The notes under the pieces are model-generated. The model was not told the DNA's origin. It worked only from the letters and a program-made list of their open reading frames with translations, and searched no databases. DNA of 64,000 nucleotides from a virus: IMG/VR virus record IMGVR_UViG_3300042387_002331; one strand, 5' to 3'. A program made the translations under genes and the position numbers. Shown here piece by piece: positions 6,362 to 57,311 of the stretch. The first letter of the stretch is position 1. Every line of letters begins with the position of its first letter.

Positions 6362-6379
6362 TACAATATTTATAATAGT

Positions 6380-6751
6380 ATGAAACTGAACCACTTACGT
6401 ACTTTAGTTAAAGAGGAGCTTAATAAGCGACTAAACGAAGAATACCAAGACAAATTTAAAATGGTTGGTATGCTTATAACCAACATTAAAAAACGCCCAC
6501 AAAAAGAAATATTTTCTGATATCCGATCAATCCCAGGAGTAACCGTAGCATCTGTTAAAGAACCTATGGAATATAGTGAACAAGACACAGAAAAATTCCA
6601 GTCAATTATGACTGTAAAAGTTGATGGTCATCCTTGGATTACAAAAGGTGGTTTTGATCGTACAAAAATGGAAGATATTCGTAAAGCAATATTAAAGGTA
6701 GAAGGAGTTTTATCATATAATGTAAATCCTGATAATATTTCTTCTCTTTAA
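6380..6751 (+). CDS. Hypothetical late protein with LRTLVKEE...LNEE leader
   Basis: 123 aa ORF with ATATTTATAA at 6366-6375. Confidence 0.7.
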   Translation: MKLNHLRTLVKEELNKRLNEEYQDKFKMVGMLITNIKKRPQKEIFSDIRSIPGVTVASVKEPMEYSEQDTEKFQSIMTVKVDGHPWITKGGFDRTKMEDIRKAILKVEGVLSYNVNPDNISSL

Positions 6752-6792
6752 TATATGTATATAGGACAATAAAGTTATATTAAATAAAAATT

Positions 6793-7521
6793 ATGAGTGA
6801 ATTTAAATTACCAACTGAAACAGTTGAATTACCTTCTAAAGGCTTACTATATCCTGAAGATTCTGAATTAGCAAAAGGTACTGTTGAAATTAAATACATG
6901 ACTGCTAAAGAAGAAGATATTCTTACCAACCAATCATATATTAAAAACGGTACTGTATTGGATAAATTAATGAAATCATTAATTGTGTCAAAAATTAATT
7001 ATGATGATATTTTAATTGGTGATAAAAATGCAATTATGGTTGCTGCTCGTATTTTAGGATATGGTGCTGAATATACTTTTAATTATTTAGGTGATTCTCA
7101 TACAGTAGATTTATCTCAAGTTGAAAATAAACCACTTAAAGAAGAATTATTTGCAAATCGTGTAAACGAATTTACCTTTACCCTTCCTAAATCAGGTAAT
7201 GTAGTTACATTTAAACTTTTAAGTCATAAAGACGAACAAGATATTGCTCGTGAACTAGAAGGTTTGAAAAAAATCAATAAAGATGCCTCTCCCGAACTTT
7301 CAACCCGTTTAAAATACCTAATCACCTCAGTAGAAGGAAAACGAGATAAAAAAGACATTCGAGAATTTGTCGACAATTATCTTCTCGCCCAAGACTCCAG
7401 GGCATTAAGAGAATATATTAGAGAGATTCAACCAGATGTTGATCTAACTTTTTTTCCCGACGGGAGTGACGATAGAATCAGTATCCCAATTGGGATTAGC
7501 TTTTTTTGGCCTGACCTATGA
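6793..7521 (+). CDS. Baseplate hub assembly / tail assembly chaperone (T4 gp26-like)
   Basis: LPS.G..Y, MTAKEEDIL and C-terminal ..FFWP; upstream of the tape measure gene. Confidence 0.75.
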   Translation: MSEFKLPTETVELPSKGLLYPEDSELAKGTVEIKYMTAKEEDILTNQSYIKNGTVLDKLMKSLIVSKINYDDILIGDKNAIMVAARILGYGAEYTFNYLGDSHTVDLSQVENKPLKEELFANRVNEFTFTLPKSGNVVTFKLLSHKDEQDIARELEGLKKINKDASPELSTRLKYLITSVEGKRDKKDIREFVDNYLLAQDSRALREYIREIQPDVDLTFFPDGSDDRISIPIGISFFWPDL

Positions 7522-7801
7522 AATAGCTCCCCAAGCTAGGGCTGCTGTATTTACACAAATTCATGAGATAGTTTTTCACGGTAAAGGTGGATACGATTGG
7601 GATACAATCTATAACATGCCTATATGGCTCCGCCGTTTTACATTCTCAAAAATTCAAGATTTTTATACCGAAGAAAAAAATGCTCTTGAAAACAAAGTAG
7701 GTGATGGAAAGAAAACAGTCATCAACCCAGATGGTACAATAAAAGCTCCTGAATTGCTTCAAAAAGCACTACAAAGCAAAAATGTTCCTAAATATAGCTA
7801 A
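7466..7801 (+). CDS. gp51-like / gpT-like chaperone extension, probably reached by frameshift
   Basis: YDWDTIYNMPIWLRRF motif; no usable ATG upstream of it; overlaps the previous gene across a T7 run. Confidence 0.65.
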   Translation: MTIESVSQLGLAFFGLTYEIAPQARAAVFTQIHEIVFHGKGGYDWDTIYNMPIWLRRFTFSKIQDFYTEEKNALENKVGDGKKTVINPDGTIKAPELLQKALQSKNVPKYS

Positions 7802-7839
7802 AAATGTTGATTTTCAATATTTATAATAAAATCATTTAA

Positions 7840-10245
7840 ATGGCTTTAACTCCTAAAGAACAAGAAAAGTTAAATAAACTTATCCAAGAAGGTATTAAAC
7901 TAGCTCAGCAGTTAAATGATACCCAACAAGCAACAAGTTTTCAAAATTTTACTGGGAGTCTTTCTGATGCTGAACGAATAGTTAAATCATTAAGACAAGA
8001 TTGGGCTGATTATGTTTCTGATATTGGAGGAGCTAGAGAAGGTTTTACTAGAATTGTTGATGAGATGAAAAACATGAATAGTGGACTTGGAAAATCTAAA
8101 GCAGCATTTTCAGATTTATCCAGTTTAGCAGCAAAATTACAAAGTCACCAACAAGGAATATCTACTTTATCAGTAAAAGAATTACAAAATTTAAAGAAAA
8201 AAGTTGCTGAAAAATTAAACGATTTAAAACTTTCCCAAAAACTTATAGCTGACGAAATTTCAGGATTAGAAAATAAAAGTACACTTGAAGCTAATGAGGT
8301 AGCTCGTTTAACTAAATTAAGGGCGGCTCAAAATGAAATTAATAGTGAATTAAGTGAACAAAGTGTCCATATAAATAGATTTAATGCTCAGTTAGACGAA
8401 CAAATTAAGTTAGAAGAACAAATCAATTCTAAACTTGGTCTTACAGGCAAGTTAATAAAAGGAATTAGCCAAGTACCATTAGTTGGTAAATTTATTGATG
8501 CTGATAAAGCATTAGGCAAAATGCGAGATACTGCTAAAGATGGTGGTGGAAAATTAGCAACTTTAGGAGCAGGATTTAAATCTATTGGCGGTGATATAGC
8601 AAAAGGACTTACAGACCCTTTATTTTTAGTCACTCAGCTAGTTAAAATGTTTATAGATGTAGATAAGCAAGCTGGAGCTTTTGCTAAATCACAAAACATA
8701 AGTTATAAAGATGCATTAAAAATGAGAGAAGAATATGCTGCTATGGCAGTTTCTTCTGGAGATATGTCATTAAATGCTAGGGCATTTATGGAAACCCAAA
8801 GTGCTATTGGCACCTCATTAGGAACAAATGCTAAACTTAATAAAGCTGATTTAGAAACCTTTACTAAACTACGTGAAAAAGCAGGACTTACTAATGAAGA
8901 GTTAGTTTCAATTCAAAAAGTATCCTTAGTAAACGGAAAAACCTTAGCCCAAAATTCCTCAGAAATATTAGGAGGTGCTAAAGCATATGCTATGCGTAAT
9001 AAACTTGTTATAAACGAAAAACAAGTATTAAAAGACGTTTCTAAAGCATCATCTGCTTTAACTTTAAGTTTAGGAGGAAGTTTAAAAGCTGTATCCGAAG
9101 CTGTAGTAAAAGCTAAACAATTTGGTTTGACTCTTGAACAAACCGAAAAAATGTCTGAAAGCTTATTAAACTTTGAACAATCTATTGAAAGTGAATTAAG
9201 TGCAGAATTACTTTTAGGTAAAGATTTAAATTTTGAACGAGCAAGAGGATTAGCATTAAACGGAAAAACTGCTGATGCTGCCGCTGAGATAGCAGCCCAA
9301 GTAGGCTCAGCTGCTGATTTTGGTAAATTAAACGTAATCCAACAAGAAGCTATTGCTAAAGCTATTGGGTTAAATCGAGAAGAATTAGCTAAATCATTAA
9401 TAGAAAGAGAAGCGTTAGCTAAAATTGGTTTTAAAGATGCTGAAGCTGCTAAAGCAAGATATGAAGAATTAAGAAAAACCCGTACTGCTGAAGAAGCAGC
9501 TAAAGAATTAGGTGATGAACAATTAGCTTTGCAATTTGAACAACAATCTAATGCTGAAAAATTTGCTCAAACTATGGAGCATGTTAAAGAAATTTTTGTT
9601 AGCATTGTTGATGGTCCTATGGGTTTAATACTAAACTTCTTAGGTGAAATGTTAAAAAATACTACATTAATATACTCAATTACTGGACTTTTAGCAGGAT
9701 TATATGCTGGAAAATTAGTTGGGGGTATTATTATGGCTATTGGACGAACTATAGCTTTAATAGCTGCTAATACCGCAAACGCTGCTGCAGCTACTGCTGC
9801 ATCTACAGCTATGTCATTTGGAGCTATAGTCCCTGTTATATTAGCAGGAGTAGGAGCCGTTATAGGAGCAATCGCTGCATATAAAGCTGATGACTTAATG
9901 TCCGCCCCTCCAGGATACGGTAAACGCACCTTAGTAGGCCCAGAAGGAGCAATCCAATTAAACGATAAAGATACAGTTATTGCAGGTACAAATTTATTTG
10001 GAAACGACGTTAAATCTGAACCAGGTAAAGCTACCAAAATGGGTGGGAAAGGAGAAATTAAATTAGGTGGTGATTCTTCATCTGTAGTAAATGCCATAAT
10101 GGAACTAAGAAAAGATGTAAACGCTTTAGCTAATCGTCCAATAAATGTAGCTATTGATGGTAAAAAAGTAATTGAAGCAACAACTGGTGATAACCCAAAT
10201 ACTCAAGGAGACGAAAATAGAAAAAATAGTTACAAAATGTCTTAA
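7840..10245 (+). CDS. Tape measure protein
   Basis: 801 aa, Ala/Leu/Lys/Glu-rich helical with a hydrophobic C-terminal stretch; follows the chaperone pair. Confidence 0.8.
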   Translation: MALTPKEQEKLNKLIQEGIKLAQQLNDTQQATSFQNFTGSLSDAERIVKSLRQDWADYVSDIGGAREGFTRIVDEMKNMNSGLGKSKAAFSDLSSLAAKLQSHQQGISTLSVKELQNLKKKVAEKLNDLKLSQKLIADEISGLENKSTLEANEVARLTKLRAAQNEINSELSEQSVHINRFNAQLDEQIKLEEQINSKLGLTGKLIKGISQVPLVGKFIDADKALGKMRDTAKDGGGKLATLGAGFKSIGGDIAKGLTDPLFLVTQLVKMFIDVDKQAGAFAKSQNISYKDALKMREEYAAMAVSSGDMSLNARAFMETQSAIGTSLGTNAKLNKADLETFTKLREKAGLTNEELVSIQKVSLVNGKTLAQNSSEILGGAKAYAMRNKLVINEKQVLKDVSKASSALTLSLGGSLKAVSEAVVKAKQFGLTLEQTEKMSESLLNFEQSIESELSAELLLGKDLNFERARGLALNGKTADAAAEIAAQVGSAADFGKLNVIQQEAIAKAIGLNREELAKSLIEREALAKIGFKDAEAAKARYEELRKTRTAEEAAKELGDEQLALQFEQQSNAEKFAQTMEHVKEIFVSIVDGPMGLILNFLGEMLKNTTLIYSITGLLAGLYAGKLVGGIIMAIGRTIALIAANTANAAAATAASTAMSFGAIVPVILAGVGAVIGAIAAYKADDLMSAPPGYGKRTLVGPEGAIQLNDKDTVIAGTNLFGNDVKSEPGKATKMGGKGEIKLGGDSSSVVNAIMELRKDVNALANRPINVAIDGKKVIEATTGDNPNTQGDENRKNSYKMS

Positions 10246-10275
10246 TACATAATATTTATAATAAAATAAATAACC

Positions 10276-10572
10276 ATGGGAATCTTAACTAAATTAACAA
10301 CTCAAGGATCTGCTTTTACAGCATATGATGGTACTACTCCAACTGTAAATCCACTTGCAACCCAGCAATCTAAATTACATGCTAATGGAAACCAACCAGG
10401 ATATTCATTAAATGGTGCTAATGCTGGTCAAGTAACAGCAGATTATAATGCATATCAAGATGGAACACCAAACCAAATTCCATTGCCTTCATTATTAGAC
10501 ATAAATGGAGTTATCCCACCAGTATCACCAGGTGGACAAGGTTTACCGTATTTGAATAATTTACCTGGTTAA
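10276..10572 (+). CDS. Hypothetical virion protein
   Basis: 98 aa in the tail module with the late motif at 10252. Confidence 0.55.
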   Translation: MGILTKLTTQGSAFTAYDGTTPTVNPLATQQSKLHANGNQPGYSLNGANAGQVTADYNAYQDGTPNQIPLPSLLDINGVIPPVSPGGQGLPYLNNLPG

Positions 10573-10582
10573 AACTAATTAA

Positions 10583-12655
10583 ATGGGTCTTTTACTGAAA
10601 TTAAATAATGGGGATACCCAATTAAAATCACTTAAATTTGGTAAAGATAGACCAGGAGGGGGAGATAGTGGACAACCTTTTATTCCTCAAAACATACAAA
10701 CAGGTCTTCAGAATCCTTCGTTTTATAACGATTTTGTATTGCGTGGAGGAATTGAAGCCCCTTTAAGTGCCGCTGAAGACGTTACTCGTTTAACCAAATA
10801 TTTTATAAACATAAAAAACCCTAGCGGGCTTTTATTTACAGCAAAACAAAACCTACTTTCTCGAGTAGGTACAAAAACTGAAGCATCTAAAGGGTTAGGT
10901 TATGCTGGGGGTGCTTTAAATGAAGGAGCATATACACCATTATCTACATTAGCTGAAGCTGGAATAGTATGGGCTGGAGGTCATGTAAACAAACAAGGTT
11001 TAGATCCTACTGGTTTATTTTCATTTGCTTCTATTAACAAATATCAAGATGTTATTGCCCAAAATCAACTTACTGGAAGAATTGATTTAGAAAACAATAG
11101 ACTAGTTAGACTTTCTACTTTAATTCCAGTAAATAGTGGTGAAAATAATTTTGCTTTTGTTAAAGGATATAGTTTAAATCCTACACTAGAAAATGATGTT
11201 TTAATTTCTTATGGAGGCGGATCCGACTCAGTTTTAGGAATAGGAAAAACTAAAATTAAATTTGCAACCGGAAACGATGGTGTTCCTTTAAAAACACTAG
11301 TACCAAAGCCAAAAGATTATTTAGTAGGTAAACCATATGATCCAACCAATGAGGATAAATTCCAATTACCTATTAACGCATCTTCAGATTATAACGAATA
11401 TATAAAAAGTTTTTCAAGTAATTTTGTTGAAAATGATTTAACCAAAAACGGAAAAAATTCGTTTACACAAAATTTTCCAATAGATGTTTACGAATCAGGA
11501 TCACTTAAAAGTAATAGTAATATAGGAAAAGGTTCATGGACACAACAAGACTTTACAAACCAACCTATTAATTCGGATGCAACTACATTAAATGATTTTA
11601 GACAAATACTAAAACCAACAGAAAGCCCTCAATATACCTTTTTAAGTTTAGCTCCTCCATATGCAACTAACAATATTGAAGATAATCTTAAATTGGGTAA
11701 TCCTGGAAGAAAAGGAAACATTTCAAGTTACACAGCAGGTAAAAAATCTATAAACGGACCTATTACCAATTTAGGACCTGTAGATAGAGTAAATGCTTCT
11801 CCAATATATAAAACAAACACTAAAGACGGATCTAAATACTCTACCGACCCAAATTTAAAAGACATTATTCCGTTTTTTATCGCTATATTAAACAATGATA
11901 ATCAAGTAGGAGGTACATATAAAAAATATATGCACTTTAGAGCTTTTATAGATTCATTTTCTGATTCATATGGTGCTGAATGGAAATCTATAGAATATAT
12001 GGGTAGAGCAGAAAAATTCTACAAATATGGAGGATTTACTCGAGAAATATCAATGGCATTTACTATTGTAGCTCAATCAAGAGAAGAAATAACAATTATG
12101 TATGATAAGTTAAACTTCCTTGCCTCTTCACTTGCTCCTGAGTACCTTGATAGTTACACATCAGGATATATGGCAGGAAACATTGCATACGTTACTTTAG
12201 GAGGTTATTTAGATGACCAACCAGGAGTTATAACATCATTAACATTTGATGTCCCTGAAGAATCACCTTGGGAAATAGGTATAGATGATGCGGGAAATGA
12301 TTTACCTATAAATGATATCAGACAAGTACCTCATATGATTAAAGTAACGGGTATTAAATTTATTCCAATTCACAAATTTAGACCTGAAAAACAATCATTT
12401 AGAAATGATAAACTTGGAACTGATAGTACTAGATTACTAAACACAGGTAAACAAAGATACATAGACCAACTTCGTCCTGAAACATCAAATTATGATAGAG
12501 AAAATTCACGATTAAATCAAATAGAGTCAGAAAAGATTGCTTTACAAAACCAAACCACTACAAACTTATTAGTATCCCAACAAGCCCCATCAGGGATAGA
12601 AAATGTTACAAATAACCAAGGTTTAATTAATTCTAATACACTTACTCAATTATGA
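10583..12655 (+). CDS. Baseplate / tube-initiator-like protein
   Basis: FRAFIDSFSDSY.AEW....YMGRAE.FY.Y.GF.R.IS..F tube-fold segment; position in the tail module. Confidence 0.6.
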   Translation: MGLLLKLNNGDTQLKSLKFGKDRPGGGDSGQPFIPQNIQTGLQNPSFYNDFVLRGGIEAPLSAAEDVTRLTKYFINIKNPSGLLFTAKQNLLSRVGTKTEASKGLGYAGGALNEGAYTPLSTLAEAGIVWAGGHVNKQGLDPTGLFSFASINKYQDVIAQNQLTGRIDLENNRLVRLSTLIPVNSGENNFAFVKGYSLNPTLENDVLISYGGGSDSVLGIGKTKIKFATGNDGVPLKTLVPKPKDYLVGKPYDPTNEDKFQLPINASSDYNEYIKSFSSNFVENDLTKNGKNSFTQNFPIDVYESGSLKSNSNIGKGSWTQQDFTNQPINSDATTLNDFRQILKPTESPQYTFLSLAPPYATNNIEDNLKLGNPGRKGNISSYTAGKKSINGPITNLGPVDRVNASPIYKTNTKDGSKYSTDPNLKDIIPFFIAILNNDNQVGGTYKKYMHFRAFIDSFSDSYGAEWKSIEYMGRAEKFYKYGGFTREISMAFTIVAQSREEITIMYDKLNFLASSLAPEYLDSYTSGYMAGNIAYVTLGGYLDDQPGVITSLTFDVPEESPWEIGIDDAGNDLPINDIRQVPHMIKVTGIKFIPIHKFRPEKQSFRNDKLGTDSTRLLNTGKQRYIDQLRPETSNYDRENSRLNQIESEKIALQNQTTTNLLVSQQAPSGIENVTNNQGLINSNTLTQL

Positions 12656-12966
12656 TTCGTTACAGAGGTTCTTTTACATATGATACTCCTAATGGATCTC
12701 AAATAGGATATGCTTTAACTAAATATCCAATAATTCCTTTGAGTTCTTTAGATATTTATGTATATACTACACAAGGTGATAGGTATGATGTTATAGCACA
12801 AAACTACTATAATGATTCAACTTTGTGGTGGATAATTAATCGTGCAAACCCAAATCAAGATGCAAATTCAATATTTCCTACTGTAGGGGCCCAAATCAGG
12901 ATTCCTGCTTTTGACAGAATAGGAGAAATTTTATTACAATATGAAGCATTAAATTTATCAATTTAA
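12652..12966 (+). CDS. LysM-like baseplate wedge protein (gp53 / P2 gpX-like)
   Basis: GDRYDVIAQNYYNDSTLWWII..AN...G.QIRIP. Confidence 0.8.
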   Translation: MIRYRGSFTYDTPNGSQIGYALTKYPIIPLSSLDIYVYTTQGDRYDVIAQNYYNDSTLWWIINRANPNQDANSIFPTVGAQIRIPAFDRIGEILLQYEALNLSI

Positions 12967-12973
12967 AAAAGTT

Positions 12974-16642: not shown

Positions 16643-16651
16643 TAAATTTTT

Positions 16652-17260: not shown

Positions 17261-17283
17261 AAAATCTTTAGTATCTTCAAAGC

Positions 17284-18531: not shown

Positions 18532-18536
18532 AAGTT

Positions 18537-18998: not shown

Positions 18999-19030
18999 TT
19001 TGGTTATTTAAAAAAAGGTTATTATATTAA
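18999..19030 (+). promoter_or_regulatory. Bacteroidota-type housekeeping promoter TTG-N20-TAnnTT (representative copy)
   Basis: Same 20 nt spacing at 3867, 22001, 27083, 34036, 36713, 43721, 49178, 53930, 57332, 58526 and 60967; variant -33 elements at 17249, 49963 and 62770. Confidence 0.75.
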
Positions 19031-19059
19031 ACGTTGTAAACAATAAAAATAGTTATATT

Positions 19060-19884: not shown

Positions 19885-19899
19885 TTAAGTAAATAAGTT

Positions 19900-20985: not shown

Positions 20986-20986
20986 T

Positions 20987-22018: not shown

Positions 22019-22046
22019 GTTATTAAATTTAAATAAAAGTTATAAA

Positions 22047-24346: not shown

Positions 24347-24350
24347 AATT

Positions 24351-29380: not shown

Positions 29381-29629
29381 ATGGCAGGACCTTTTGATTT
29401 TACAGGTCAGAATATAGAAACAACATATCAAAGGGTTCTTCAAACCGATGGACAATTTGTGTATGACGGAACAGGCTCCACAGTTCCTATTAATTTAGAT
29501 TCAGCTTCATTTGCAACTACAGGTTCAAATATTTTTATTGGAGACCAAATAGTAACAGGAAGTATTTCAGTTACAAACTCCGTGACTGCCTCCTACTTTG
29601 TTGGTATTATAGACGGAGGCACTTTTTAA
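29381..29629 (+). CDS. Small fibre-associated protein ending IDGGTF
   Basis: FATTGSN.F.G.Q.VTGS motif, related to segments of the fibre proteins. Confidence 0.55.
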   Translation: MAGPFDFTGQNIETTYQRVLQTDGQFVYDGTGSTVPINLDSASFATTGSNIFIGDQIVTGSISVTNSVTASYFVGIIDGGTF

Positions 29630-29641
29630 TATTTATAAATA

Positions 29642-32600
29642 ATGAGCACAATAATAACTAGAAATAGCACAAATTCAGGAAGTACACCTTCTGTACTTGT
29701 ACAAGGTGAACTAGCAATTAATGTAACTGATGGACGTTTATTTTATGGTTCAGGTTCTGGAAACGTTGTAAAAGAATTTGGAGTAACGTCTTCATATGCT
29801 TTACAAGCTTTAAGTTCCTCATATGCTGAAACAGCTTCATATGCCCCAGCATATTTACCTTTAACAGGAGGTACAATAAATGGAGATGTAATAGTAAATG
29901 GTACTGCATCAATTGCGTTTTTAAACGTATCCTATGAATCTGCTTCTGTAATATATTCAAGTGGCTCAAATCAGTTTGGAGACGCTTCAAATGACGTTCA
30001 AACGCTTTACGGAACCGTAGATATAAAAACAGGACCTGTTTTAGTAACAGGATCTTTAGATGTATCTGGAGGAATAACAGGAAGTTTACTTGGAACTGCT
30101 TCATATGCTGCTCAAGCTTTATCAAGTTCATATGCCTTAAGTGCTTCACATGCTGATCATGCTACAAGTGCTTCATATGCCTTAACAGCATCTTATGTTA
30201 ACCCATTACACCAAATTGTTCAAATAACTGGATCTTTAAATTCAACAGGGTCTAATAATTTTTATGGAAATACTACTATTAACGGAGGATTAATAATATC
30301 TGGAGCTTATCTTCCTTTAGGTTTAGCCTCATCTTCTGTATTTTTTCATGCAAATCCAACATTTGATGGATTTTTAAAACTCAACCCAGTAAATGTAGTC
30401 CCAGACACTACAGTATCAGCTTCTTATATTTTTACTTCGGGTTCAACCCAAGATTTATATTTTTCTCAAAACAGTAACGGATATAGTAATGTAATACGTT
30501 TGCGTTGGTTAGAAGGTAATATCTATACAGGAATTTTAACTGGAGGTGTTGTTAGTGGAAGTGTAGGGGGCACTACATTTAATGTAAGTAGTGGTAGTGG
30601 CATAATAGTTACTTTAAATGCTACTACGGCTAGTATTGAACCTTATCCTACAGTTAACTATGTTCAATGGCCCTCATATACTAATGTTACTCCAACATAT
30701 TTGAATACCCATGACACAACGTGGCTTCTTATAAACAATTCAGGTAGTTTAATTCAACAAACTGATGCTCCAACTAATGGGCAATTTGATAATTTTATTC
30801 AAATTGGATCTCTAGTTCACCCTAATTTATCTACTATAAGTCTGTATAAAACTTTTACAGTAACTTCTTATGGCATTGCACAACAAACATATGAATTCAT
30901 TAGATCATTTGGTGGAATAAAAATTTCAGGCCATACTATATCTCCTAGTGGCTCTAGTTTATATGTTAATAGATCATCAGGTGTAGCATTTTCTTTAGGT
31001 AGAAATTATGTAAATAATGCTAATAAACCATCCTATGTACCTGATGCAGCATATAATTCACCATTAATATTTAAATATTATCTTTCAGGATCTACATTCG
31101 TTACTACAACAGGAAGTGTAATAGACCCAACCCAATATAATACACCTACTACCCCAACAGGCTTATCTCCTGTTCCAGGAGGACTTTATTCAATACAACG
31201 AATATTTTATTTTCCTAACCAACCTAATATATTAGGAGTTTATTATGGAAGATCTACGTATAATTCTATTTCAAATGCATTAGCTAATTTACCATACGAA
31301 GATTTTCAAGAAAATAATAACACATTAACCCAAGCAATATTTTGTGCTTATTTAATAGTAAAAAGTGGTACTTCTGATTTATCTAATACAACAGATGCTA
31401 AATTTATCCAAGCTGGTACTTTTAGAAATACTACAACTGGAGGAGGAGGTTCTACTGTAGCTAGTTTAGATGATTTATCCGATGTTAGTATTTCTTCTCC
31501 ACTTAATGGAGACTTATTAGCATATAATGGAGTTTCCTGGGTAAATACAAAAAATACTACAGGTTCATATAATATTAATGGTAATATAACTGCAAATTCA
31601 TTTACGGGATCTTTACAAGGTATAGCAACTACTGCTAGTTACGTTCAAACGGCTCAAACCGCTTCATACGTTTTAAATGCTGTAAGTTCATCATATGCTA
31701 CTCAAGCATTATCAAGTTCATATGCTTTAACAGCATCATATTCCGATACTTCAACAAGTGCATCATATGCATTGTCCGCTTCATATGCACCAAGCACACC
31801 CGCATTTCCTTATACAGGTTCTGCAGAAATTACAGGTTCATTAGGAGTAACAGGCTCATTTAGTACACAAACATTTGACGGATTAACATATGTTCCTGCT
31901 ATATCAATTAGTGATTTTTCTAGAACCATATATGATGTAATGGGCACTAGCAGCTTTGATGCTGATGCTAGAGATTTATATGATAGTACTACTGTTAATA
32001 GTATTAGTTGGGAATCTCGTAGATTATCTGACGGTTTAGGAGGTGCTAGTGTTTATTGGGATACTAGATGGTTAGTTGATCCATTAGGGATAACTACAGT
32101 GAATTGGGGTATTAGAACCGGATACGATTCATCTACTTCTCAATCAATAGATTGGGGTGGTCGTATTTTATATGATGCAAACGAATCTTATTCAATCGAT
32201 TGGGCAGCCAAAGCTTTATGGGGAACCGGTGGTTTTCCAACTTTAGAATGGGCTAGTAGATATTTAAACGATGCTAGTGGAAATGTTTCTGTAGATTGGG
32301 GTAACAGATTGACTAAAGATTCCTCTAATAAAGAGTCAATAGACTACCAGAACCGCCAATTAAAAAATTCAAATGGAAATGAAGTACTTAACTGGCAATC
32401 AGGTGTAACAATAACAGGATCGGCAATTGTTTCTGGAAGTCTTGAATCAACAGGTTCATTTAGTGTTCAAACATATAATTCATTTTTAGCTGCAACTGCA
32501 ACTGCTATTGAATTAAACGATACCACTCGAAGAATATATGATACATCGGGTTTATTAAGTATAGATGCTCTTTTTAGAACTGCAAATTATCAAAATCTTA

Positions 32601-34811: not shown

Positions 34812-35521
34812 GCAATCAAACAATCCAATGGTCAGGATATGAATGGCTGACCCAAGAAAGATGGGGTCAAATCCATCCAGACAAACCAATTTGTTGGTAT
34901 GATCCAACAGCTATACAAATAAATAGTGAAAGTGAAATTGTATTAAAAACACAATACAATCCAAAACAATTTGATGATGTAGTTTCCCCAATTGGAGTTG
35001 GGTTAATTTCATGTACTGAAAAATTTAGTTATGGAATGTTTAGCATAGAAGCTAAACTACCTAAAGGACCATATTTATGGCCTGCATTTTGGATGTATGC
35101 TTGGGAATCTTGGCCACCTGAAATAGATATATTTGAAGCATACTCAAACAGTAGATCAAGTTATTTTAACTGGGATTGGAAAAGTTTATTTGGAAAGTTT
35201 TGGAGAGTAGAAACTAATATACACTTAGGTGAATCCCCAAACAACTATAGTTTAGGAGCCCAACCAGGGTATGTAGGTTTTACACCACCAACAGAAAAAT
35301 TCAACACATATACAGTTGATTGGACTCCAACTTACATTAAAATATACTACAATAACAAATTAGTTAGACAAGTAACAGATCCGAATGTGTTAAAACAATT
35401 TGAAGGGAAAACAATGAATGTGATTATCAACAATGGTGTTCAAAATTCATATCCTACTAATAGCAATTTACAAACTGAATTTATAGCACGTAATTTTAAA
35501 TATATTCCATATGAAAAATAA
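34808..35521 (+). CDS. Glycoside hydrolase family 16
   Basis: YG..EAKLP.G..LWPAFWM...WPPEIDIFE (ExDxxE catalytic motif). Confidence 0.88.
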   Translation: MSNQTIQWSGYEWLTQERWGQIHPDKPICWYDPTAIQINSESEIVLKTQYNPKQFDDVVSPIGVGLISCTEKFSYGMFSIEAKLPKGPYLWPAFWMYAWESWPPEIDIFEAYSNSRSSYFNWDWKSLFGKFWRVETNIHLGESPNNYSLGAQPGYVGFTPPTEKFNTYTVDWTPTYIKIYYNNKLVRQVTDPNVLKQFEGKTMNVIINNGVQNSYPTNSNLQTEFIARNFKYIPYEK

Positions 35522-36137
35522 AGTTGAATTACTAGGACATTATGGAGATGATTTAATTCATGCTTGCTCAGCTTGGACAAGCACATCACGTGAATTAACT
35601 GACGAAAAAATAGAACGTGTACCAAAATTGCTAAACATGTTAGCAAGTGAAGGACACCACACCCCATTTGAAAAATCAAGTTTGCACTTTTTAGTCACAG
35701 TAGATCAAGCAACTCACATCCATTTGCTAAAACATAGAATTGGAGTTTCAATTAATGGAGAAAGCGCACGTTACAAAGAATTAAAAGAAGATAAAACATA
35801 TTTACCTGCAGATTGGCCTGAACGATGGGATACAGCATTACGTAATTTTACAAATGAATCTAATACACTTTATCATATGTGTTTAGAAGAATTAACTTCT
35901 GTTTTAGGCCGTAAACGTGCTAAAGAATCTGCTCGTTTCTTTAAAACATTCAACTCCCAGATTACAATGGATATTATGTTTAACTGGAGGAGTTTTGCTC
36001 ATTTTCAACAACTTCGAAACAGCGAACATGCACAAGTTGAAGTAAGAGAGTTAGCACAACAAATGTTAGAGCTAGTTAAAAATATTGAAGGTAATCCTTT
36101 TAAACACACAATAGAAGCATTTAAGTTATCCAATTGA
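35511..36137 (+). CDS. thyX: Flavin-dependent thymidylate synthase
   Basis: HHTPFE, KHR..SINGESARY, N.RS..HF..LR and HAQ.EVR. Confidence 0.93.
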   Translation: MKNKVELLGHYGDDLIHACSAWTSTSRELTDEKIERVPKLLNMLASEGHHTPFEKSSLHFLVTVDQATHIHLLKHRIGVSINGESARYKELKEDKTYLPADWPERWDTALRNFTNESNTLYHMCLEELTSVLGRKRAKESARFFKTFNSQITMDIMFNWRSFAHFQQLRNSEHAQVEVRELAQQMLELVKNIEGNPFKHTIEAFKLSN

Positions 36138-36164
36138 TTCATATTTATAATAAAGGTATAAACT

Positions 36165-36629
36165 ATGAAAAAATCTGATTTAAAAAAAATTATCCGAGAA
36201 GAAATTCAAAAAGAAATATTTGGTCTTTTTAACAAAAAAACACCTCCTCCCCCACCACCCCCAAGTACTCCAAAAAAACCTACCCCATCACCTTTATCTT
36301 CTTTTGAGCTTAATGGAAACCCAATAACAATAGAAGGGATAAGTGCTACTGGAAAAGGTTACCATGTTTGGAAAGGTAATAATCCTTTAGGAGATTTAAG
36401 ACAGATTGCTTCTAAAGCATATGAAAATGGATTTGGTGAAACCCAAGATAAAATATATTATATAGCAATCGTAAACCCAGAATCTTCTAGATACTTAAGA
36501 GACCATGTAGATAGACCAGCATATTTTACTGTTTCTACTCCAAAAGGAGGAGCAACTAAAGGTGAATTAAAAGCGATAGCTGATAGGATTTTAAAACTTA
36601 ACCCTGATGGGAAAATTAAAATATGGTAA
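36165..36629 (+). CDS. Hypothetical late protein with MKKSDLKKIIREE leader and a polyproline linker
   Basis: Late motif at 36141-36150. Confidence 0.7.
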   Translation: MKKSDLKKIIREEIQKEIFGLFNKKTPPPPPPPSTPKKPTPSPLSSFELNGNPITIEGISATGKGYHVWKGNNPLGDLRQIASKAYENGFGETQDKIYYIAIVNPESSRYLRDHVDRPAYFTVSTPKGGATKGELKAIADRILKLNPDGKIKIW

Positions 36630-39230: not shown

Positions 39231-39404
39231 ATGGATAAATTAACAAAACAAGAATTTGAAAAATTTCGTGAAGTCTGGAAATCTGAATGGTACGACCATT
39301 GGAGGCTCTTGGATATTGACTTTAAAGTTTATATGTTAATGAGAGGATTAACCGAAAAACAATTTAAAAAATTAAATAACGACGAATTATGGAAAAACAT
39401 GTAG
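39231..39404 (+). CDS. 57 aa hypothetical protein (not in ORF track)
   Basis: MDKLTKQEFEKFREVWKSEWYDHW...LWKNM; fills the gap and overlaps the queC start. Confidence 0.55.
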   Translation: MDKLTKQEFEKFREVWKSEWYDHWRLLDIDFKVYMLMRGLTEKQFKKLNNDELWKNM

Positions 39405-40336
39405 TAATTTCCCTGTCTGGAGGAATGGATTCCAGCACACTTTTGTTACGCTGTCTAAAAGAATACGACACAGTAACAGCAATTTCATTTGATTATGGAC
39501 AAAAACATCGAGTTGAGCTTGAACGAGCTAAATCGTTGGTAGATTACATTAATGAAACCAAAATTAAAGTAACAGGAAATTTAGATCAAATTCAAAATGA
39601 TTTATTGAAATTTCATGGTATAACTCCGGAAGGTTTTAGTGATATGATTAAAGAAGTAAAAGGCGAAGCATCCCCTATCACTTATCGTGTCATCAAATTA
39701 GACGGATTAACAGACTTACTCAACTCAGCTTTAGTAACAGGTGGAGATGAAGTACCTGAAGGACACTATGCTGAAGAAAATATGAAAGCAACAGTTGTTC
39801 CTAACCGAAACAAAATATTTGCTTCTATTGTTCAAGCAGTTGCACTTTCAATTGCAGATAAAACAGGTGAACAATGTGATATTGCACTTGGAATACATGC
39901 AGGTGACCATGCAATTTATCCTGATTGTAGACAAGAATTTAGAGATGCAGATGACCATGCCTTTAGAGTAGGTAACTGGGGTTCTGAAAAAGTAGGTTAC
40001 TTTACACCTTATCTTGATGGAGACAAATTTATTATTTTGCAAGATGGAGAAAAATTATGTAGTGAATTAGGACTTGATTTTAACGAAGTATACTCACGTA
40101 CAAACACTTCATATAAACCAATTTACCATGAATTCGCTTACGAAGAGGGAGATGACATTGTTGAAGTCAAAGAATGGTTTTCCGATTACAAATCAGCAAG
40201 TTCCGTAGAACGTGTAGAAGCATTTATTAAACTAGGAAGAAAAGATCCTGTATTATATGCAGACGAAGAAGGTCCTGTAACATGGAACCATGTAGTAAAA
40301 GAAGTAACAAAAGTACTTGAAACACATGAAGGATAG
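39389..40336 (+). CDS. queC: 7-cyano-7-deazaguanine synthase
   Basis: SLSGGMDS, FDYGQKH..E, VPNRN and YPDCR. Confidence 0.93.
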   Translation: MEKHVVISLSGGMDSSTLLLRCLKEYDTVTAISFDYGQKHRVELERAKSLVDYINETKIKVTGNLDQIQNDLLKFHGITPEGFSDMIKEVKGEASPITYRVIKLDGLTDLLNSALVTGGDEVPEGHYAEENMKATVVPNRNKIFASIVQAVALSIADKTGEQCDIALGIHAGDHAIYPDCRQEFRDADDHAFRVGNWGSEKVGYFTPYLDGDKFIILQDGEKLCSELGLDFNEVYSRTNTSYKPIYHEFAYEEGDDIVEVKEWFSDYKSASSVERVEAFIKLGRKDPVLYADEEGPVTWNHVVKEVTKVLETHEG

Positions 40337-52592: not shown

Positions 52593-53558
52593 ATGAAACT
52601 AACAGACATTTTACGCGAAGTAGAAGGAGAAGAAGATGGTATGCAACAAGTAAAGGTTCGTTACGACCTTGCTGTAGAACCCGCTGATCTTGATAAAGCA
52701 CTAGCTGCTTTAAACGATACCAAAAATTATGGTATTTACGCACAAAACATGCGAGATCCGCAAGCTATCATAAAAGCATTCGGACCTTCAATTCCTGCGC
52801 AAAAAGCTGGAGCTGCTTGGAAAGATTGGGATTCTCGTTCAGATGATGAAAAAGCATTTAAGCTAATCGATATTAAAAACAGAGTACCTGAAGCATGGAC
52901 TGCTACTGAAAAAGAAGCAGAATCAGGCTATGAAAGATGGCAAGCAGAAGGAAATGATGGGAGCTTAAACGACTATCTATTTACTCTATCAGGTAAAGAA
53001 CTTCCAAAAAGTTTAGTTGGAACATATGGCAAGAACTATTTTCCAATGAAAACACCAGACAACTTAAAAAAATATGGTGGTAAATTGGAACAAGGTGTTC
53101 ATTATGTAGTAAAAGGTGATAAAATTGTTTTTCCTTCAACTCTAGAAAACCCATATAAAACAAAACCATACTTGTCTAAAGTATTGAAAACAATTATGGA
53201 CAATGCAGGAGTTAGCTTTGAATTAATCGATGTTGAACAGGATGTTGAAGAACCAGTAGCCGTTCAAAAACCTGAAAAAGAAGTTATTCCACCTTTATCC
53301 TATACAGCTGATTCAAGAGACAAAGTTGAAAAAGCAAGAAGCATATTCCAAAAAGAAATTGGAGAAGTTCCAACTGTAAAATACGAAATAGAATCTTTTG
53401 AATCGCCTGAGGGAAGAAAGTATAAACTTGTAGTAACAGGATTCCAAAACAAAGATCAACGTGCAAAACTTTTAGTTAGAAAAACTACGTTGAAAGAAGA
53501 ACAAGAATTTGATTTTGAAAAATACCAAATGCTTAGACGAGCAGGAATAATTAAATAA
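52593..53558 (+). CDS. Late protein with MKLTDILRE leader and RAGIIK tail
   Basis: Late motif at 52581-52590. Confidence 0.7.
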   Translation: MKLTDILREVEGEEDGMQQVKVRYDLAVEPADLDKALAALNDTKNYGIYAQNMRDPQAIIKAFGPSIPAQKAGAAWKDWDSRSDDEKAFKLIDIKNRVPEAWTATEKEAESGYERWQAEGNDGSLNDYLFTLSGKELPKSLVGTYGKNYFPMKTPDNLKKYGGKLEQGVHYVVKGDKIVFPSTLENPYKTKPYLSKVLKTIMDNAGVSFELIDVEQDVEEPVAVQKPEKEVIPPLSYTADSRDKVEKARSIFQKEIGEVPTVKYEIESFESPEGRKYKLVVTGFQNKDQRAKLLVRKTTLKEEQEFDFEKYQMLRRAGIIK

Positions 53559-53559
53559 G

Positions 53560-53937
53560 ATGGACAATTTTGATTTAAAAAAGTATTTAGCTGAAAATAA
53601 GCTAAACGAAGCTGAAGGAAACGACTTGTACTATACAGCAGGTGAAATGATTTCCCAAGTTGGTTTATTCACCCAAGAAAATGCAGATAGACTAGAAGCA
53701 GAAGATAGAGGAAACCTATATCGTTTCTTTGACACCCCAGAAGAAAAAACAGAACTAATCAAAATTTCAGAAGAATATAAAAACTATTTAGCTAAAGTAA
53801 AAGCAACAATGGACGAGTTAGTAAACGATCCAATGTATAGAGTTGCAGTTGGTGATGTAGGTGGAAAATATAGAGATAGAGGACCAGGAGAAACTTTACA
53901 AAAAGCTTATTATAGATCAAAAACAGAGCTTGCCTAG
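53560..53937 (+). CDS. Late protein with MDNFDLKKYLAENKLNE leader
   Basis: Coupled to the previous gene. Confidence 0.7.
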   Translation: MDNFDLKKYLAENKLNEAEGNDLYYTAGEMISQVGLFTQENADRLEAEDRGNLYRFFDTPEEKTELIKISEEYKNYLAKVKATMDELVNDPMYRVAVGDVGGKYRDRGPGETLQKAYYRSKTELA

Positions 53938-53958
53938 TGCAAGCTTTTTTTGTATAAT
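53927..53958 (+). terminator. Terminator hairpin overlapping a TTG-N20-TATAAT promoter
   Basis: agcttgc-ctagt-gcaagct followed by a T run. Confidence 0.8.
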
Positions 53959-53964
53959 ACGGTT

Positions 53965-54873
53965 ATGAAAGAAAACACATTGTACGTAGAGCGTTTTCGT
54001 CCTACTGAACTACAATACTATGTAGGAAACGAAAATGTAAAAGACACAATCCAAAAGTACCTAGACCAAGGTGATATTCAAAACTTCATCTTCTATGGGC
54101 CTGCAGGTACAGGTAAAACTACCCTAGCTAAAATTATAGTCAAAAACCTAGACTGTGATTATCTTTACATCAACGCAAGTGATGAAAATGGAATTGACAC
54201 AATTCGAGAAAAAGTAAAGGGATTTGCTAGTGCTGCATCTTGGAAAGGAATTAAAGTAGTAATCCTAGATGAAGCAGACTTCATCACTATTCAAGGACAA
54301 GCCGCTTTACGAAACGTAATTGAAACATTTTCACGTTCAACACGTTTTATCTTAACCTGTAACTTTATAGAGCGAATTATTGATCCTCTCCAATCACGTT
54401 GCCAGGTACTTAAAATTGTACCCCCAACAAAAATGGATGTGTACAACCATTTAACTTGGATTTTAGCTGATCAATTAAACATATCCTATACACCTGAAGA
54501 TTTAAAATCACTGATAGTAAAATACTATCCTGACATGCGTAAAATGTTAAACGTTTTACAGATGTCTGTAAAAGACGATAGTGTTGTACTTGATGAAACA
54601 GTTTTGACCTCAAACAACTATATCAAAGAGGTATTGAAAGAATTAGCAGGTAAGAAAAATTGGACAACCATTAGACAAACCATAGCAGATTCAAACGTTA
54701 AAGACTTTGAAGAACTATACCGCTCACTATTCGAATATAGTTCAAAATATGCCCCAGGTAAAGAAGGTTCTGTTGCAATTATATTGAACGAGCACCTCTA
54801 TCAAGCAAATTTTCGAATTGACAAAGAAATTAACGTAATGTCTGCAATTGCAAAGATTATAGAAGTTATATGA
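53965..54873 (+). CDS. Clamp loader AAA+ subunit (gp44/RFC-like)
   Basis: ERFRP, GPAGTGKTT, NASDE, LDEAD and SRC. Confidence 0.93.
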   Translation: MKENTLYVERFRPTELQYYVGNENVKDTIQKYLDQGDIQNFIFYGPAGTGKTTLAKIIVKNLDCDYLYINASDENGIDTIREKVKGFASAASWKGIKVVILDEADFITIQGQAALRNVIETFSRSTRFILTCNFIERIIDPLQSRCQVLKIVPPTKMDVYNHLTWILADQLNISYTPEDLKSLIVKYYPDMRKMLNVLQMSVKDDSVVLDETVLTSNNYIKEVLKELAGKKNWTTIRQTIADSNVKDFEELYRSLFEYSSKYAPGKEGSVAIILNEHLYQANFRIDKEINVMSAIAKIIEVI

Positions 54874-55082
54874 AACATTTCCTAAAATACACTCTTTCGT
54901 GGGTATCAAGTAATTTGTCCGTACCTTTTTGGACAGTTGGACATATCCACCTGATGACATCTATTTATGCTGATTTACATGAAATACTAATGTCATTTGG
55001 AATGAATATAATTGTAGCAGCAGGGTTTATCCATGACTTTATAGAATATAGAAAAGAAAAAGTAACCAATAAAAACAAATAA
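54870..55082 (+). CDS. Small membrane protein
   Basis: Two hydrophobic segments. Confidence 0.5.
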   Translation: MKHFLKYTLSWVSSNLSVPFWTVGHIHLMTSIYADLHEILMSFGMNIIVAAGFIHDFIEYRKEKVTNKNK

Positions 55083-55083
55083 A

Positions 55084-55329
55084 ATGCAAGAACAACCAAG
55101 GTTGAACATCGACTTTAAAAACACAACAGCTGTAACTGGCTTTGATGGAGGTCATCTATTTGGACAAGCAATCATTGTCCGTAAAATTTCTAAATTTTTA
55201 ATCGGAGCTGAAGAAGATTCACTCATCCCAATCCCAGTATTTTATGATATGGAAAGTAAAAAAATCTTACCTGATTCACTCCCACCAGAACTTCGTGACG
55301 AATACAAAGATATTACTTTAGATGCCTAA
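55084..55329 (+). CDS. Hypothetical protein
   Basis: 81 aa ORF with RKISKF...PIPVFY. Confidence 0.6.
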   Translation: MQEQPRLNIDFKNTTAVTGFDGGHLFGQAIIVRKISKFLIGAEEDSLIPIPVFYDMESKKILPDSLPPELRDEYKDITLDA

Positions 55330-55380
55330 AAAACATACATAGATTTGTATCCTTCTAATATGTATAATAAACGAAGTGAT

Positions 55381-55977
55381 ATGAAAATATGTAATGTGTG
55401 TAAAACAGAAAAACCATTAGACGAATATTTTAGATCGAATCATGGTACCTGTAAAGTTTGTAATCGAGAAAAGAATCGTGAACGCAACAAAAAAAGGTAC
55501 CATGACGATCCCACCCATAAACAAGAACAGTTAAATAGAACAAAACAATATGTTAAAGAAACTGGATATTGGGCTAAATGGAGGGAAAATAACAGAGACA
55601 AAATAAAAGAATCCAATACAAAAAACAAAGAATATAAACGTCAGTGGTCCCAAAAACAAAGACAAAGTAACATCCAACACAGATTAAAAGAAAATATCCG
55701 AAGTAGAATATACTTAGCTTTAAAAAATAAAAGTAATTCAAGTAAAGAACTTTTAGGTTGCCCTATTAAAAAATATATTATATATTTAGAGCAACAATTT
55801 GACCAAAACATGAATTGGGAAAACTATGGAACATATTGGGAAATAGATCATATTAAACCAATTTCATTGTTTGATTTGACAAAAGAACAAGAAATTAAAA
55901 AATGCTTCAACTATAAAAATACAAAACCACTCTCTATAAATGAAAACCGGCAAAAAGGAAATAAAGAATATTTTTGA
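55381..55977 (+). mobile_element. Free-standing HNH homing endonuclease
   Basis: C..C...K....F...CK.C; MNWENYG..WEIDHI.P...N..PL...EN..K; own late motif at 55358. Confidence 0.8.
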
Positions 55978-56377
55978 ATGGCTTAATGAAATAACCCTCT
56001 ACAAAACCCCAATTAAAGGTATTTCGGAAGAATCATGGGAAAAATGGAATTCTTATATGGTTCACCGGTATTTATCAATGAATATAAATTATGTTGAACT
56101 AGCTAATTTTGTTCAAACTCTACCATACGAGAACAAACAACAAACATATTTAATTTATAGAGAGATGATCCCAAAAACTAAAACGTTCTTGAAGTACGTT
56201 AAGTCAAGAACAAAGAGACAGCCTGTTACTTTGGTAGAGTACGTAGCAAAACATTTTGAATGCAGTTTAGGCGAAGCTGAAGAATATATTGACATTTTAC
56301 GTGAACATGGAGTAAGAAATGTTCTATACAAAATGGGTGTTGAAGATAAAGAAGTAGAAAAACTATTAAAAAAATGA
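55940..56377 (+). CDS. Probable clamp loader small subunit (gp62-like)
   Basis: FEWLN.I...YMVHRYLS...AN...K.KTFLKYVK pattern resembles gp62; near the gp44-like gene. Confidence 0.6.
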   Translation: MKTGKKEIKNIFEWLNEITLYKTPIKGISEESWEKWNSYMVHRYLSMNINYVELANFVQTLPYENKQQTYLIYREMIPKTKTFLKYVKSRTKRQPVTLVEYVAKHFECSLGEAEEYIDILREHGVRNVLYKMGVEDKEVEKLLKK

Positions 56378-56589
56378 ATAGAGAAATTAAGGTTACAGAT
56401 TCAATTGTTGATTCAGTTATTGACCAGTTTGTTTCAAGAGCCACATTTGGTAAAACAAAATATGGAGTTGATTTAGACCGTGAAGATTTAAGCGTTTTAG
56501 AGTGGATTGAACACGCTAAACAAGAACACATGGATGCGATTTTATATTTGGAAAAATTGAAAAAAATCGTAGAGACCAAAGGACTATAA
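56374..56589 (+). CDS. Small hypothetical protein (possibly all-alpha NTP-PPase fold)
   Basis: G..KYG..L.R.DL...W..HA..E.MD..LY. Confidence 0.55.
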   Translation: MNREIKVTDSIVDSVIDQFVSRATFGKTKYGVDLDREDLSVLEWIEHAKQEHMDAILYLEKLKKIVETKGL

Positions 56590-56610
56590 TATTTATAATA
56601 AAATACCAAA

Positions 56611-57069
56611 ATGGATAAAGAAACATTACGTATGCAAATGCTAGCTGGGGTAATTACAGAAAGCGAATATAAAGCAAAATTAGAAGAATCTAAAAAAGAC
56701 TCATTAAACGAACACTACGTTGCAGGAGGAATTGTAGGAATTGGAGCTATCAACCAAATCCCACCTCGCGCTAAAACAGATTACGAAGATGCTTTTGAAT
56801 ACTTTTTAAGTCAAAAATACCCTTTAAACGAGGAAGAAAGCGTTAATGAAAACGTAATGGCCGTAGGTAATGAAGTTGAACATCCTGAAGGTACTGGTAC
56901 AATTGAATTAGTTACTGACTATGCTTCATATGCTGATGAGATTGATGCTAATCTTGGAATGGATTGGGAATCTATGACTCCAAAAGAAGAATTAACCTGG
57001 TATAAAATTAAAGGTGATGATGGAGAAACTTATTGGTTTGATGAAGAAGAATTAAGCGAATTTAATTAA
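56611..57069 (+). CDS. Late protein with LRMQMLAGVITE leader
   Basis: Late motif at 56589; leader nearly identical to that of 48653. Confidence 0.7.
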   Translation: MDKETLRMQMLAGVITESEYKAKLEESKKDSLNEHYVAGGIVGIGAINQIPPRAKTDYEDAFEYFLSQKYPLNEEESVNENVMAVGNEVEHPEGTGTIELVTDYASYADEIDANLGMDWESMTPKEELTWYKIKGDDGETYWFDEEELSEFN

Positions 57070-57077
57070 TATATTTC

Positions 57078-57311
57078 ATGAACCAAAGAGACACAATCAC
57101 ATTAGACGTTCCTCTATTTATTCGTTTACTCGAATACGCTAGAGAAGATGCTCAAACCGACATGGACTTACACAACGTATCAGAAAATGCAATCGGTTTA
57201 GCACTTTCAGGAAAAACGTTAACAATGAAAGACTACAACATGATTGTTGGTTCCCCTGAAGACATTGAAGAAATTAAAATGCTCCAAATACGAGCTGGGA
57301 TTATTAAATAA
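57078..57311 (+). CDS. Late protein with RAGIIK tail
   Basis: DVPLFIRLLEYARED; C-terminus shared with 52593. Confidence 0.65.
   Translation: MNQRDTITLDVPLFIRLLEYAREDAQTDMDLHNVSENAIGLALSGKTLTMKDYNMIVGSPEDIEEIKMLQIRAGIIK

Follow-up and report, generated by a model that had tools for sequence, protein, structure and literature searches.

Terminal peptides resembling the phage's own scaffold tail on candidate prohead-cargo proteins encoded in late-type cassettes of a T4-like phage

The stretch of DNA considered here (the window, 64,000 nucleotides (nt) of the IMG/VR virus record IMGVR_UViG_3300042387_002331) carries seven open reading frames (ORFs), here named 6380, 36165, 48653, 52593, 53560, 56611 and 57078, whose bodies are unrelated and whose ends share short peptides. 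The most widespread of these peptides, (L)RMQxLAG(I/V)I or xAGIIK, is in its sequence a copy of the C-terminal tail of the phage's own scaffold-position protein. An earlier sequence-only reading had taken the seven ORFs for a set of packaged effectors with portable capsid-targeting peptides; all seven, with their shared end peptides, translate as it quoted them. The scaffold-tail identity goes beyond that reading and gives the capsid-targeting idea a concrete physical basis. The cassettes in which these genes lie probably encode prohead-core cargo or accessory proteins bearing an address peptide at a terminus, which would be cut off at (I/L)xE by a gp21-type protease. By analogy with the capsid-targeting sequence (CTS) of T4, the tags are most likely capsid-loading labels. 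More tentatively, RMQKLAGII may be a position-independent docking peptide whose carriers, tagged at either end, compete with the scaffold, are clipped and are delivered with the DNA, so that the cassettes would form an exchangeable injected arsenal of a large, mostly uncultured aquatic T4-like clade.

The window corresponds to bases 95875-159874, minus strand, of one virus record that is 166,116 bp long and has 32% G+C; nearly all genes of the record are on one strand. The phage is T4-like, with hosts of the freshwater Flavobacteria type. Tail genes within the window include two sheath paralogues and one for a tube protein, and it also encodes a family-B DNA polymerase whose nearest match in the phage collection is only 31% identical; no DNA near-identical to the window was found in that collection. 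Cultured relatives are Flavobacterium phage vB_FspM_immuto (hereafter immuto; host Flavobacterium sp. LMO8) and, more distantly, Microcystis phage Mel-JY01. The head module lies outside the window in the order TerL, portal, three ORFs, a Peptidase_S77 protease, a very acidic protein of 412 amino acids (aa) and the Gp23 capsid protein. The protease matches the gp21-type prohead family PF03420 (3.4e-27, 95.7 bits, cut-off 27) and the capsid protein is of gp23 type (PF07068, 7e-75). Because the 412-aa protein is located where T4 gene 22 is, it is regarded as the scaffold-position protein. It ends in FLRMQKLAGII and is enriched in [LI]xE sites (19 vs 10.6 expected, P = 0.003), the expected look of a scaffold that is chopped up by a protease.

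In a scan of all six frames of the genome, (R)MQxLAG(I/L/V)(I/L) or its AGIIK variant occurs six times. It lies at the N-terminus of 48653, of 56611 and of a 93-aa ORF from outside the window, at the C-terminus of 52593 and of 57078, and in the sixth case at the very end of the scaffold-position protein. Likewise, AG[ILV][ILV] stands within five residues of the C-end in three proteins, the scaffold-position protein among them. In pairwise BLASTP, residues 5-15 of ORF 48653 are identical at 8 of 11 positions to residues 402-412 of the scaffold-position protein, its last 11. A deeper homology between these two proteins, through hydrophobic Gly-rich segments and an AEF..KASS stretch, was considered and rejected; BLASTP supports the tag-to-tail match alone. 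No paper containing an RMQKLAG-type motif was found in the literature library searched, and the RMQxLAG scaffold-tail tag is new relative to published work, the underlying T4 capsid-targeting principle being known.

The tail is not peculiar to this genome. A degenerate DNA pattern for RMQKLAGII, scanned in viral contigs, occurs on at least 120 of them, against a chance expectation of about 0.3. At 100 of these loci it encodes the extreme C-end of a protein of 300-480 aa, and 82 of the 83 loci with enough downstream sequence lie directly before a gp23 homologue. These loci were selected by the motif itself; the test was repeated on relatives retrieved by the capsid gene alone (n = 72). The scaffold-position protein has R[MWF][QRK]x[LI]A[GFN] at its end in all 72, 1-6 residues from the stop, and [IL]xE stands exactly 5-6 residues upstream of the tail in 66 of them. 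Within this clade the tail is thus the conserved element at the scaffold's end, and both cultured relatives have it. Scaffold N-termini of the clade (..KQAIAEAK) resemble the N-terminus of T4 gp22 (MLKEQLIAEAQK); T4 gp22 ends differently (...AKVASRF), without the RMQ tail. Contigs with both scaffold and cargo regions contain M variants only, and immuto combines a W scaffold tail with M cargo tags, so strict matching of the M/W/F position between scaffold and cargo is not required.

Two further observations concern the head module. The scaffold-position gene of immuto (L285:5998-7239; NC_055915.1 125626-126867) is labelled 'DNA polymerase phi-like protein' in RefSeq, probably a mis-annotation from the acidic low-complexity region. 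A 149-aa ORF between portal and protease (L001:5714-6163, minus strand) shares 21 residues, 57% identical, with residues 61-81 of the capsid protein (L001:160-1842, minus strand); the shared stretch starts directly after a Glu in both proteins, as if the same new N-terminus were exposed by cleavage.

The portability of the peptides, proposed from this one genome, holds across relatives. In 80 relatives retrieved through the phage GroEL (67-99% identity, with 10-kb flanks), the RMQ tag starts 77 ORFs that fall into 42 unrelated body clusters, and I-x-E follows the tag directly in 68 of the 77. The MDNFDLKK leader begins 19 ORFs (12 body clusters) and the MKxSxLKxLIKEE leader 17 ORFs (10 body clusters). 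Since (I/L)xE comes after N-terminal tags and before C-terminal ones, the protease motif falls between tag and body in either arrangement, and it is almost always present at that junction in the sequences. This agrees with the cleavage proposed by the sequence-only reading: the (L/I)xE motif of gp21-type proteases is on the body side of the tags and the genome encodes a predicted protease of that type. Relative L176 (8921-9700) contains a natural fusion of 259 aa, in which an N-terminal RMQ-type tag is joined to a 56611-like segment and to the body of 57078, the latter without its C-tail; the retention of the N-tag with loss of the C-tail is as expected if one address is needed per polypeptide. 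Two tagged cargo ORFs were found in immuto, namely KNV73_gp230 (131 aa, MKKQILSEQFKRMQFLAGIITE..., behind TATATTTATAA) and a 154-aa ORF near 111.7 kb.

Three cargo slots among the replication genes are hypervariable between conserved flanking genes. Slot A, which runs from PolB to the gene w49213 and is the place of 48653, contains 0-3 ORFs; 33 of 56 loci have none there. Slot B, from an 87-aa ORF after GroEL to the clamp loader, contains 0-5 ORFs, and 93 of its 108 ORFs are tagged. Slot C, from w56374 to the nuclease gene, also contains 0-5 ORFs, mostly 2-3, with 2-5 in all but two of 31 loci.

Position beside the chaperonin genes suggests another partner for the tag. The window encodes a GroES (Cpn10, 1e-19) and a 545-aa GroEL (50369-52298); relatives of the latter occur on at least 598 viral contigs, from which the 80 loci above, 67-99% identical to it, were kept; the chaperonin is thus a stable core gene of the phage group. 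RMQxLAGII loosely recalls the GGI(V/F) stretch of the co-chaperonin mobile loop, and the peptide could recruit its carriers to a non-shell partner, either the phage GroEL/GroES chaperonin or the portal. Of the three cassettes, two lie beside the GroES/GroEL operon, and GroEL is present in both complete uncultured tag-bearing relatives as well as in immuto. However, the scaffold of Mel-JY01 has the tail (ERMKKLAGIVK, preceded by L-N-E), and the complete 190-kb record of this phage gave no GroEL match to the query that matched other relatives, while many GroEL-carrying relatives have an empty slot B. Together with the invariable presence of the peptide at the scaffold-position end of the 72 relatives, and with an adjoining protease motif that fits removal inside the prohead, this makes a chaperonin or portal address quite improbable.

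By sequence similarity the peptides of the seven ORFs form at least four families, the leaders besides the RMQ tag being MKxSxLKxIIREE, MDNFDLKKYLAE and MKLTDILRE. Among N-terminal 12-mers, 31 pairs score at least 30, vs a mean of 5.3 (maximum 11) for internal segments; leader patterns match 13 genes elsewhere vs 0 of 75 early-region genes; and in BLAST among carriers the similarity stops after 14-38 residues. For these three reasons the shared peptides are not a composition effect. The idea that they are by-products of AT-rich codons, of 5' coding ends kept A-rich for translation start where the host lacks Shine-Dalgarno pairing, or of paralogy, with no addressing at all, is already disfavoured and has very little probability left. 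It draws on the 32% G+C genome, in which K/E/I/L-rich N-terminal helices are common, on the merely modest likeness of the ORF 6380 leader to the others (score 29-32) and on the three MIKLxDIL proteins, which are true paralogues. The absence of leader matches from early-region genes and the roughly sixfold excess of high-scoring leader pairs over internal segments both speak against it, and composition cannot explain an 11-residue scaffold-end peptide on 42 unrelated bodies, with its Glu mirrored in N- and C-terminal versions.

Coordinates of the tagged ORFs and of the boxes and hairpins that delimit their cassettes are collected in Table 1.

Table 1. Features of the candidate cargo cassettes (window positions).
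Feature	Position	Strand	Remarks
Late-type box ATATTTATAA	6366..6375	+	4 nt before ORF 6380; upstream of 69/80 orthologues
ORF 6380, 123-aa basic protein	6380..6751	+	N-terminal helix MKLNHLRTLVKEELNKRLNEE (nt 6380-6442) and ferredoxin-like domain
Late-type box	36141..36150	+	14 nt before ORF 36165
ORF 36165, 154-aa basic accessory protein	36165..36629	+	Leader MKKSDLKKIIREE (nt 36165-36203), proline-rich linker, ~100-aa domain
Late-type box ATATGTATAA	48622..48631	+	21 nt before ORF 48653
ORF 48653, 164-aa acidic protein	48653..49147	+	N-terminal tag MAKELLRMQLLAGVITE (nt 48653-48703), then I-T-E
Terminator-like hairpin	49171..49198	+	Closes the 48653 cassette
Terminator-like hairpin	52549..52572	+	Ends the GroES/GroEL operon; the box at 52581 follows closely
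Late-type box	52581..52590	+	2 nt before ORF 52593; kept before orthologues
ORF 52593, 321-aa protein tagged at both ends	52593..53558	+	Leader MKLTDILRE (nt 52593-52619), C-tail YQMLRRAGIIK (within nt 53508-53555)
ORF 53560, 125-aa acidic protein	53560..53937	+	Leader MDNFDLKKYLAENKLNE (nt 53560-53610) containing L-A-E and L-N-E sites
Terminator-like hairpin	53925..53947	+	Closes the 52593/53560 cassette
Late-type box	56589..56598	+	12 nt before ORF 56611
ORF 56611, 152-aa very acidic protein	56611..57069	+	N-terminal scaffold-tail tag MDKETLRMQMLAGVITE (nt 56611-56661)
ORF 57078, 77-aa protein	57078..57311	+	C-terminal tail IKMLQIRAGIIK behind I-E-E site (nt 57264-57308)
Terminator-like hairpin	57324..57353	+	Closes the 56611/57078 cassette

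The tagged proteins of the window differ in how widely and how evenly they are conserved. ORF 36165 is an accessory gene and a rare one: among 5.8 billion proteins it has only 3 homologues, in which the leader is conserved and the proline linker variable. Over 16 aa its leader matches an unrelated 114-aa protein of the same genome at 75% identity. The leader of ORF 53560 is likewise found on two other unrelated proteins of this genome, and in relatives on 19 ORFs of 12 body clusters. ORF 56611 is conserved in relatives over its first ~80 aa and variable in its C-terminal part. Orthologues of ORF 52593 are present in 42 loci, with tails that range from YQMLRRAGIIK to YRMQKLAGL and FLRMQKLAGIITE, and an L-K-E site precedes the C-tail. 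In the 26 orthologues of ORF 57078 the Glu before the tail (E65) is invariant, with I or L at -2, and the tails include RMQVRAGIIK, RMQRLAGILK and FRRMQKQAGL. Because orthologues of 52593 and 57078 have canonical tails, the window tails MLRRAGIIK and MLQIRAGIIK are diverged versions of the same element.

Five of the seven window proteins are acidic (isoelectric point 4.1-5.5), like the scaffold. No match above threshold to Pfam or PHROGs was obtained for the body of any of the seven ORFs, and the ESM Atlas gave no usable match. The AlphaFold2 (AF2) model of ORF 52593 has a mean predicted local distance difference test score (pLDDT) of 74, with residues 1-24 below 50 and the tail as a helix at 308-316; no Foldseek PDB match to it was found at E <= 0.001, and residues 228-307 matched only generic ferredoxin-like domains (VIA-align, Z up to 8.2). 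The suggestion that the bodies are anti-defence or takeover factors consequently gains nothing from these searches: the bodies match no family or informative fold, and most are acidic.

The genes are organised behind a recurrent late-type box, ATAT[TG]TATAA, of which the window contains 15 copies, all on the plus strand (expected 2.05; at most 6 in any of 100 shuffles). Over the whole genome the gene strand has 34 copies and the opposite strand one, and the box also lies upstream of sheath, tube, fibre and other structural genes. As had been noticed from the sequence at the outset, the box precedes each tagged gene or gene pair, 2-21 nt before the first ORF of five units, ORFs 53560 and 57078 being the second genes of box-led two-gene units. 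The tie between peptides and box extends over the genome, the box being directly upstream of 7/13 leader genes vs 22/210 others (Fisher p = 3e-4), and in relatives the first ORF of a cassette slot is usually box-led. The three hairpins proposed to end cassettes are also present. The cassettes are set among ThyX and QueC (around 36165), PolB (before 48653), GroES/GroEL and a clamp-loader ATPase (around 52593/53560) and a PD-(D/E)XK nuclease (after 57078), which are presumably early genes.

Several boxes end just 2-6 nt before the ATG (window 6366-6382, 29629-29644, 52581-52595); if the box is a -10-like element, the corresponding mRNAs would be leaderless or nearly so. At window 42069-43693 a box is followed by a 534-aa tail-fibre paralogue (N-terminus MSTLKVNNIEP) that lies among nucleotide-metabolism genes and has no leader tag, so the late cassettes of that region are not only tagged cargo. 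A 228-aa ORF at window 60283-60985 also stands behind ATATGTATAA (at 60283); copies 33-44% identical to it occur in relatives L129, L130, L134, L140 and L160, where they are inserted between GroEL and the 87-aa ORF, and it behaves as a mobile, homing-endonuclease-type gene.

ORF 6380 is the exception among the seven. It has 946 homologues, the best 120 of them 87-100% identical and all 123 aa long, and the order tube, w3902, 6380, baseplate hub is kept in 80/80 related loci, where the gene is 80-94% conserved. The AF2 model (pLDDT 80) consists of a 20-residue helix and a generic ferredoxin-like domain, with the NikR C-domain, EF-1beta and S6 as best Foldseek rows. Two tail-terminator profiles cover it at near full length and below threshold (PF23818, 14.1 bits, cut-off 27, E = 0.037; phrog_3907, E = 0.029); no tail-terminator structure was among the matches listed by the fold search. 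In the window, then, ORF 6380 is a fixed core gene of the tail module and no exchangeable cassette; that it belongs with the cargo is doubtful. The swappable gene set of the sequence-only reading accordingly stands for the hypervariable cassette slots and not for ORF 6380. Its family is not unconnected to the cargo, since a 52% paralogue with a canonical MNKSELKQLIKEE start is found in cargo slot C of the distant relative L181.

The closest known system is that of T4, whose internal proteins, unrelated and fast-evolving, are brought into the scaffolding core by a CTS of 10 residues; gp21 removes the CTS at L/I-x-E, Alt being trimmed at both ends (PMC9026906, PMC3012670). The present phage resembles T4, with its IPI, IPII, IPIII and Alt propeptides, in several respects: a gp21-family S77 protease is encoded next to the scaffold and gp23-type capsid genes, short terminal peptides are carried by unrelated, fast-changing proteins from hypervariable loci, and (L/I)xE stands at the junction. 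ORF 52593, tagged at both ends, is comparable to Alt. The MDNF leader ends in Y-L-A-E. Unlike in T4, whose gp22 lacks such a tail, the main tag copies the scaffold C-tail, and it would serve either terminus of a protein. The tags here belong to at least four coexisting families, in contrast to T4, and the genes are in promoter-to-terminator cassettes among replication genes; most cargo of the window is acidic rather than basic, and the system is so far known from its genes.

Copying of a scaffold end by a second protein has a precedent in staphylococcal phage 80alpha and the satellite SaPI1. The scaffold of the one and CpmB of the other share a helix-and-hook in their last 16 residues, which ends in RIIK and binds the N-arm of the capsid protein (PMC5644958). 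The peptide here is similarly made up, as an amphipathic helix and hook ending in I-I-K (...LAGIIK or ...RAGIIK), and the tail is predicted to be helical in ORF 52593. The capsid lineage and host are different, and the likeness is not put forward as homology of sequence. CpmB serves its satellite as a size-redirecting scaffold, whereas dozens of unrelated bodies, putatively cargo, are found here; the copy here can also be N-terminal and is flanked by a protease motif, and its capsid binding is putative. In the giant phages phiKZ, 201phi2-1 and SPN3US, many head-internal proteins are cut after Glu by a diverged gp21 homologue (PMC9026906, PMC5694885). For these ejection or inner-body propeptides no portable scaffold-end tag is described, and the cleavage motif and genome organisation differ.

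From these parallels a sequence of events can be proposed. The ATAT(T/G)TATAA box would drive the cassette units late in infection. The tag would then dock its carrier at the scaffold docking site, most likely on the gp23-type capsid protein, at its inner face or N-arm, or else in the scaffold core. The RMQ address would be the amphipathic helix-plus-GII(K) hook that ends the phage's scaffold, and the other addresses T4-CTS-like N-terminal helices ending in (I/L)xE. Cleavage of (I/L)xE between tag and body by the gp21-type protease would free the body inside the head, where it may be retained in the virion and delivered to the next host. Modelling of a complex between the capsid protein (48-row alignment) and the 57078 family (26-row alignment) gave a score of 0.00 with no controls, a result that counts neither for nor against binding. 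To our knowledge, the route by which the T4 CTS reaches the prohead core has never been resolved structurally.

Several points weigh against loading, clipping and delivery as set out above. Cargo bodies are not depleted in [LI]xE sites (176 observed vs 167 expected), so that survival of the bodies in the presence of the protease is not evident from sequence. The prevailing acidity of the seven proteins is unlike that of the basic T4 internal proteins, and they may be expelled as scaffold fragments are. The non-RMQ leaders are without a demonstrated counterpart in a head protein, and as T4 gp22 lacks the tail, the T4 precedent covers the principle and not the RMQ peptide. ORF 6380, as described, has the features of a conserved gene of the tail module.

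With no recognisable function in the bodies, with their acidity and with no avoidance of the motif, a role in assembly or as accessory core competes seriously with the reading as injected effectors. The tagged proteins could enter the prohead as accessory parts of the scaffold or core, acting in assembly, size, protease activity or DNA entry, and be degraded or expelled either ahead of DNA packaging or in its course. Most RMQ-tagged proteins of the window are acidic like the scaffold, their bodies retain protease motifs at the expected frequency, and 52593 and 57078 are conserved and syntenic rather than variable; the solved scaffold-tail mimic, SaPI1 CpmB, is moreover an assembly factor and not an effector (PMC5644958). 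Nevertheless, 42 unrelated bodies on one tag, slots that are often empty and a gene such as 36165 with its 3 homologues look like fast-turnover accessory genes, and T4 internal proteins are equally hypervariable yet are injected (PMC3012670). A purely accessory-core role is on this evidence rather unlikely, though well ahead of a chaperonin or portal address.

If address peptides do load cargo as proposed, they would explain how very different proteins plug into phage heads at either terminus. They would also make it possible to recognise virion cargo by a rule of sequence in thousands of uncultured aquatic phages, including candidate anti-defence or takeover proteins, and would add a second natural tag with which foreign proteins could be loaded into capsids of the T4 type. 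The visible copying of the scaffold's conserved end names a specific, testable docking, that of the scaffold tail against the capsid protein. Experiments are practicable, as immuto, with tagged cargo ORFs and the scaffold tail, and Mel-JY01, with the scaffold tail, are both cultured.

Other features of the window were noted in passing. The two tail-sheath paralogues are in tandem (3-1541 and 1588-3291) and 55% identical over their full length, with a late-type box before each. The family-B DNA polymerase is intact in the window (45854-48583) but split in relatives: in L181 (424-3393) it consists of 570 aa and 310 aa around a 94-aa ORF, and in G001 (C1:10640-16383) it gives three separate matches. 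ThyX and QueC are encoded at 35511-36137 and 39389-40336, and immuto-like relatives have the full 7-deazaguanine DNA-modification pathway (QueC/D/E/F, DpdA).

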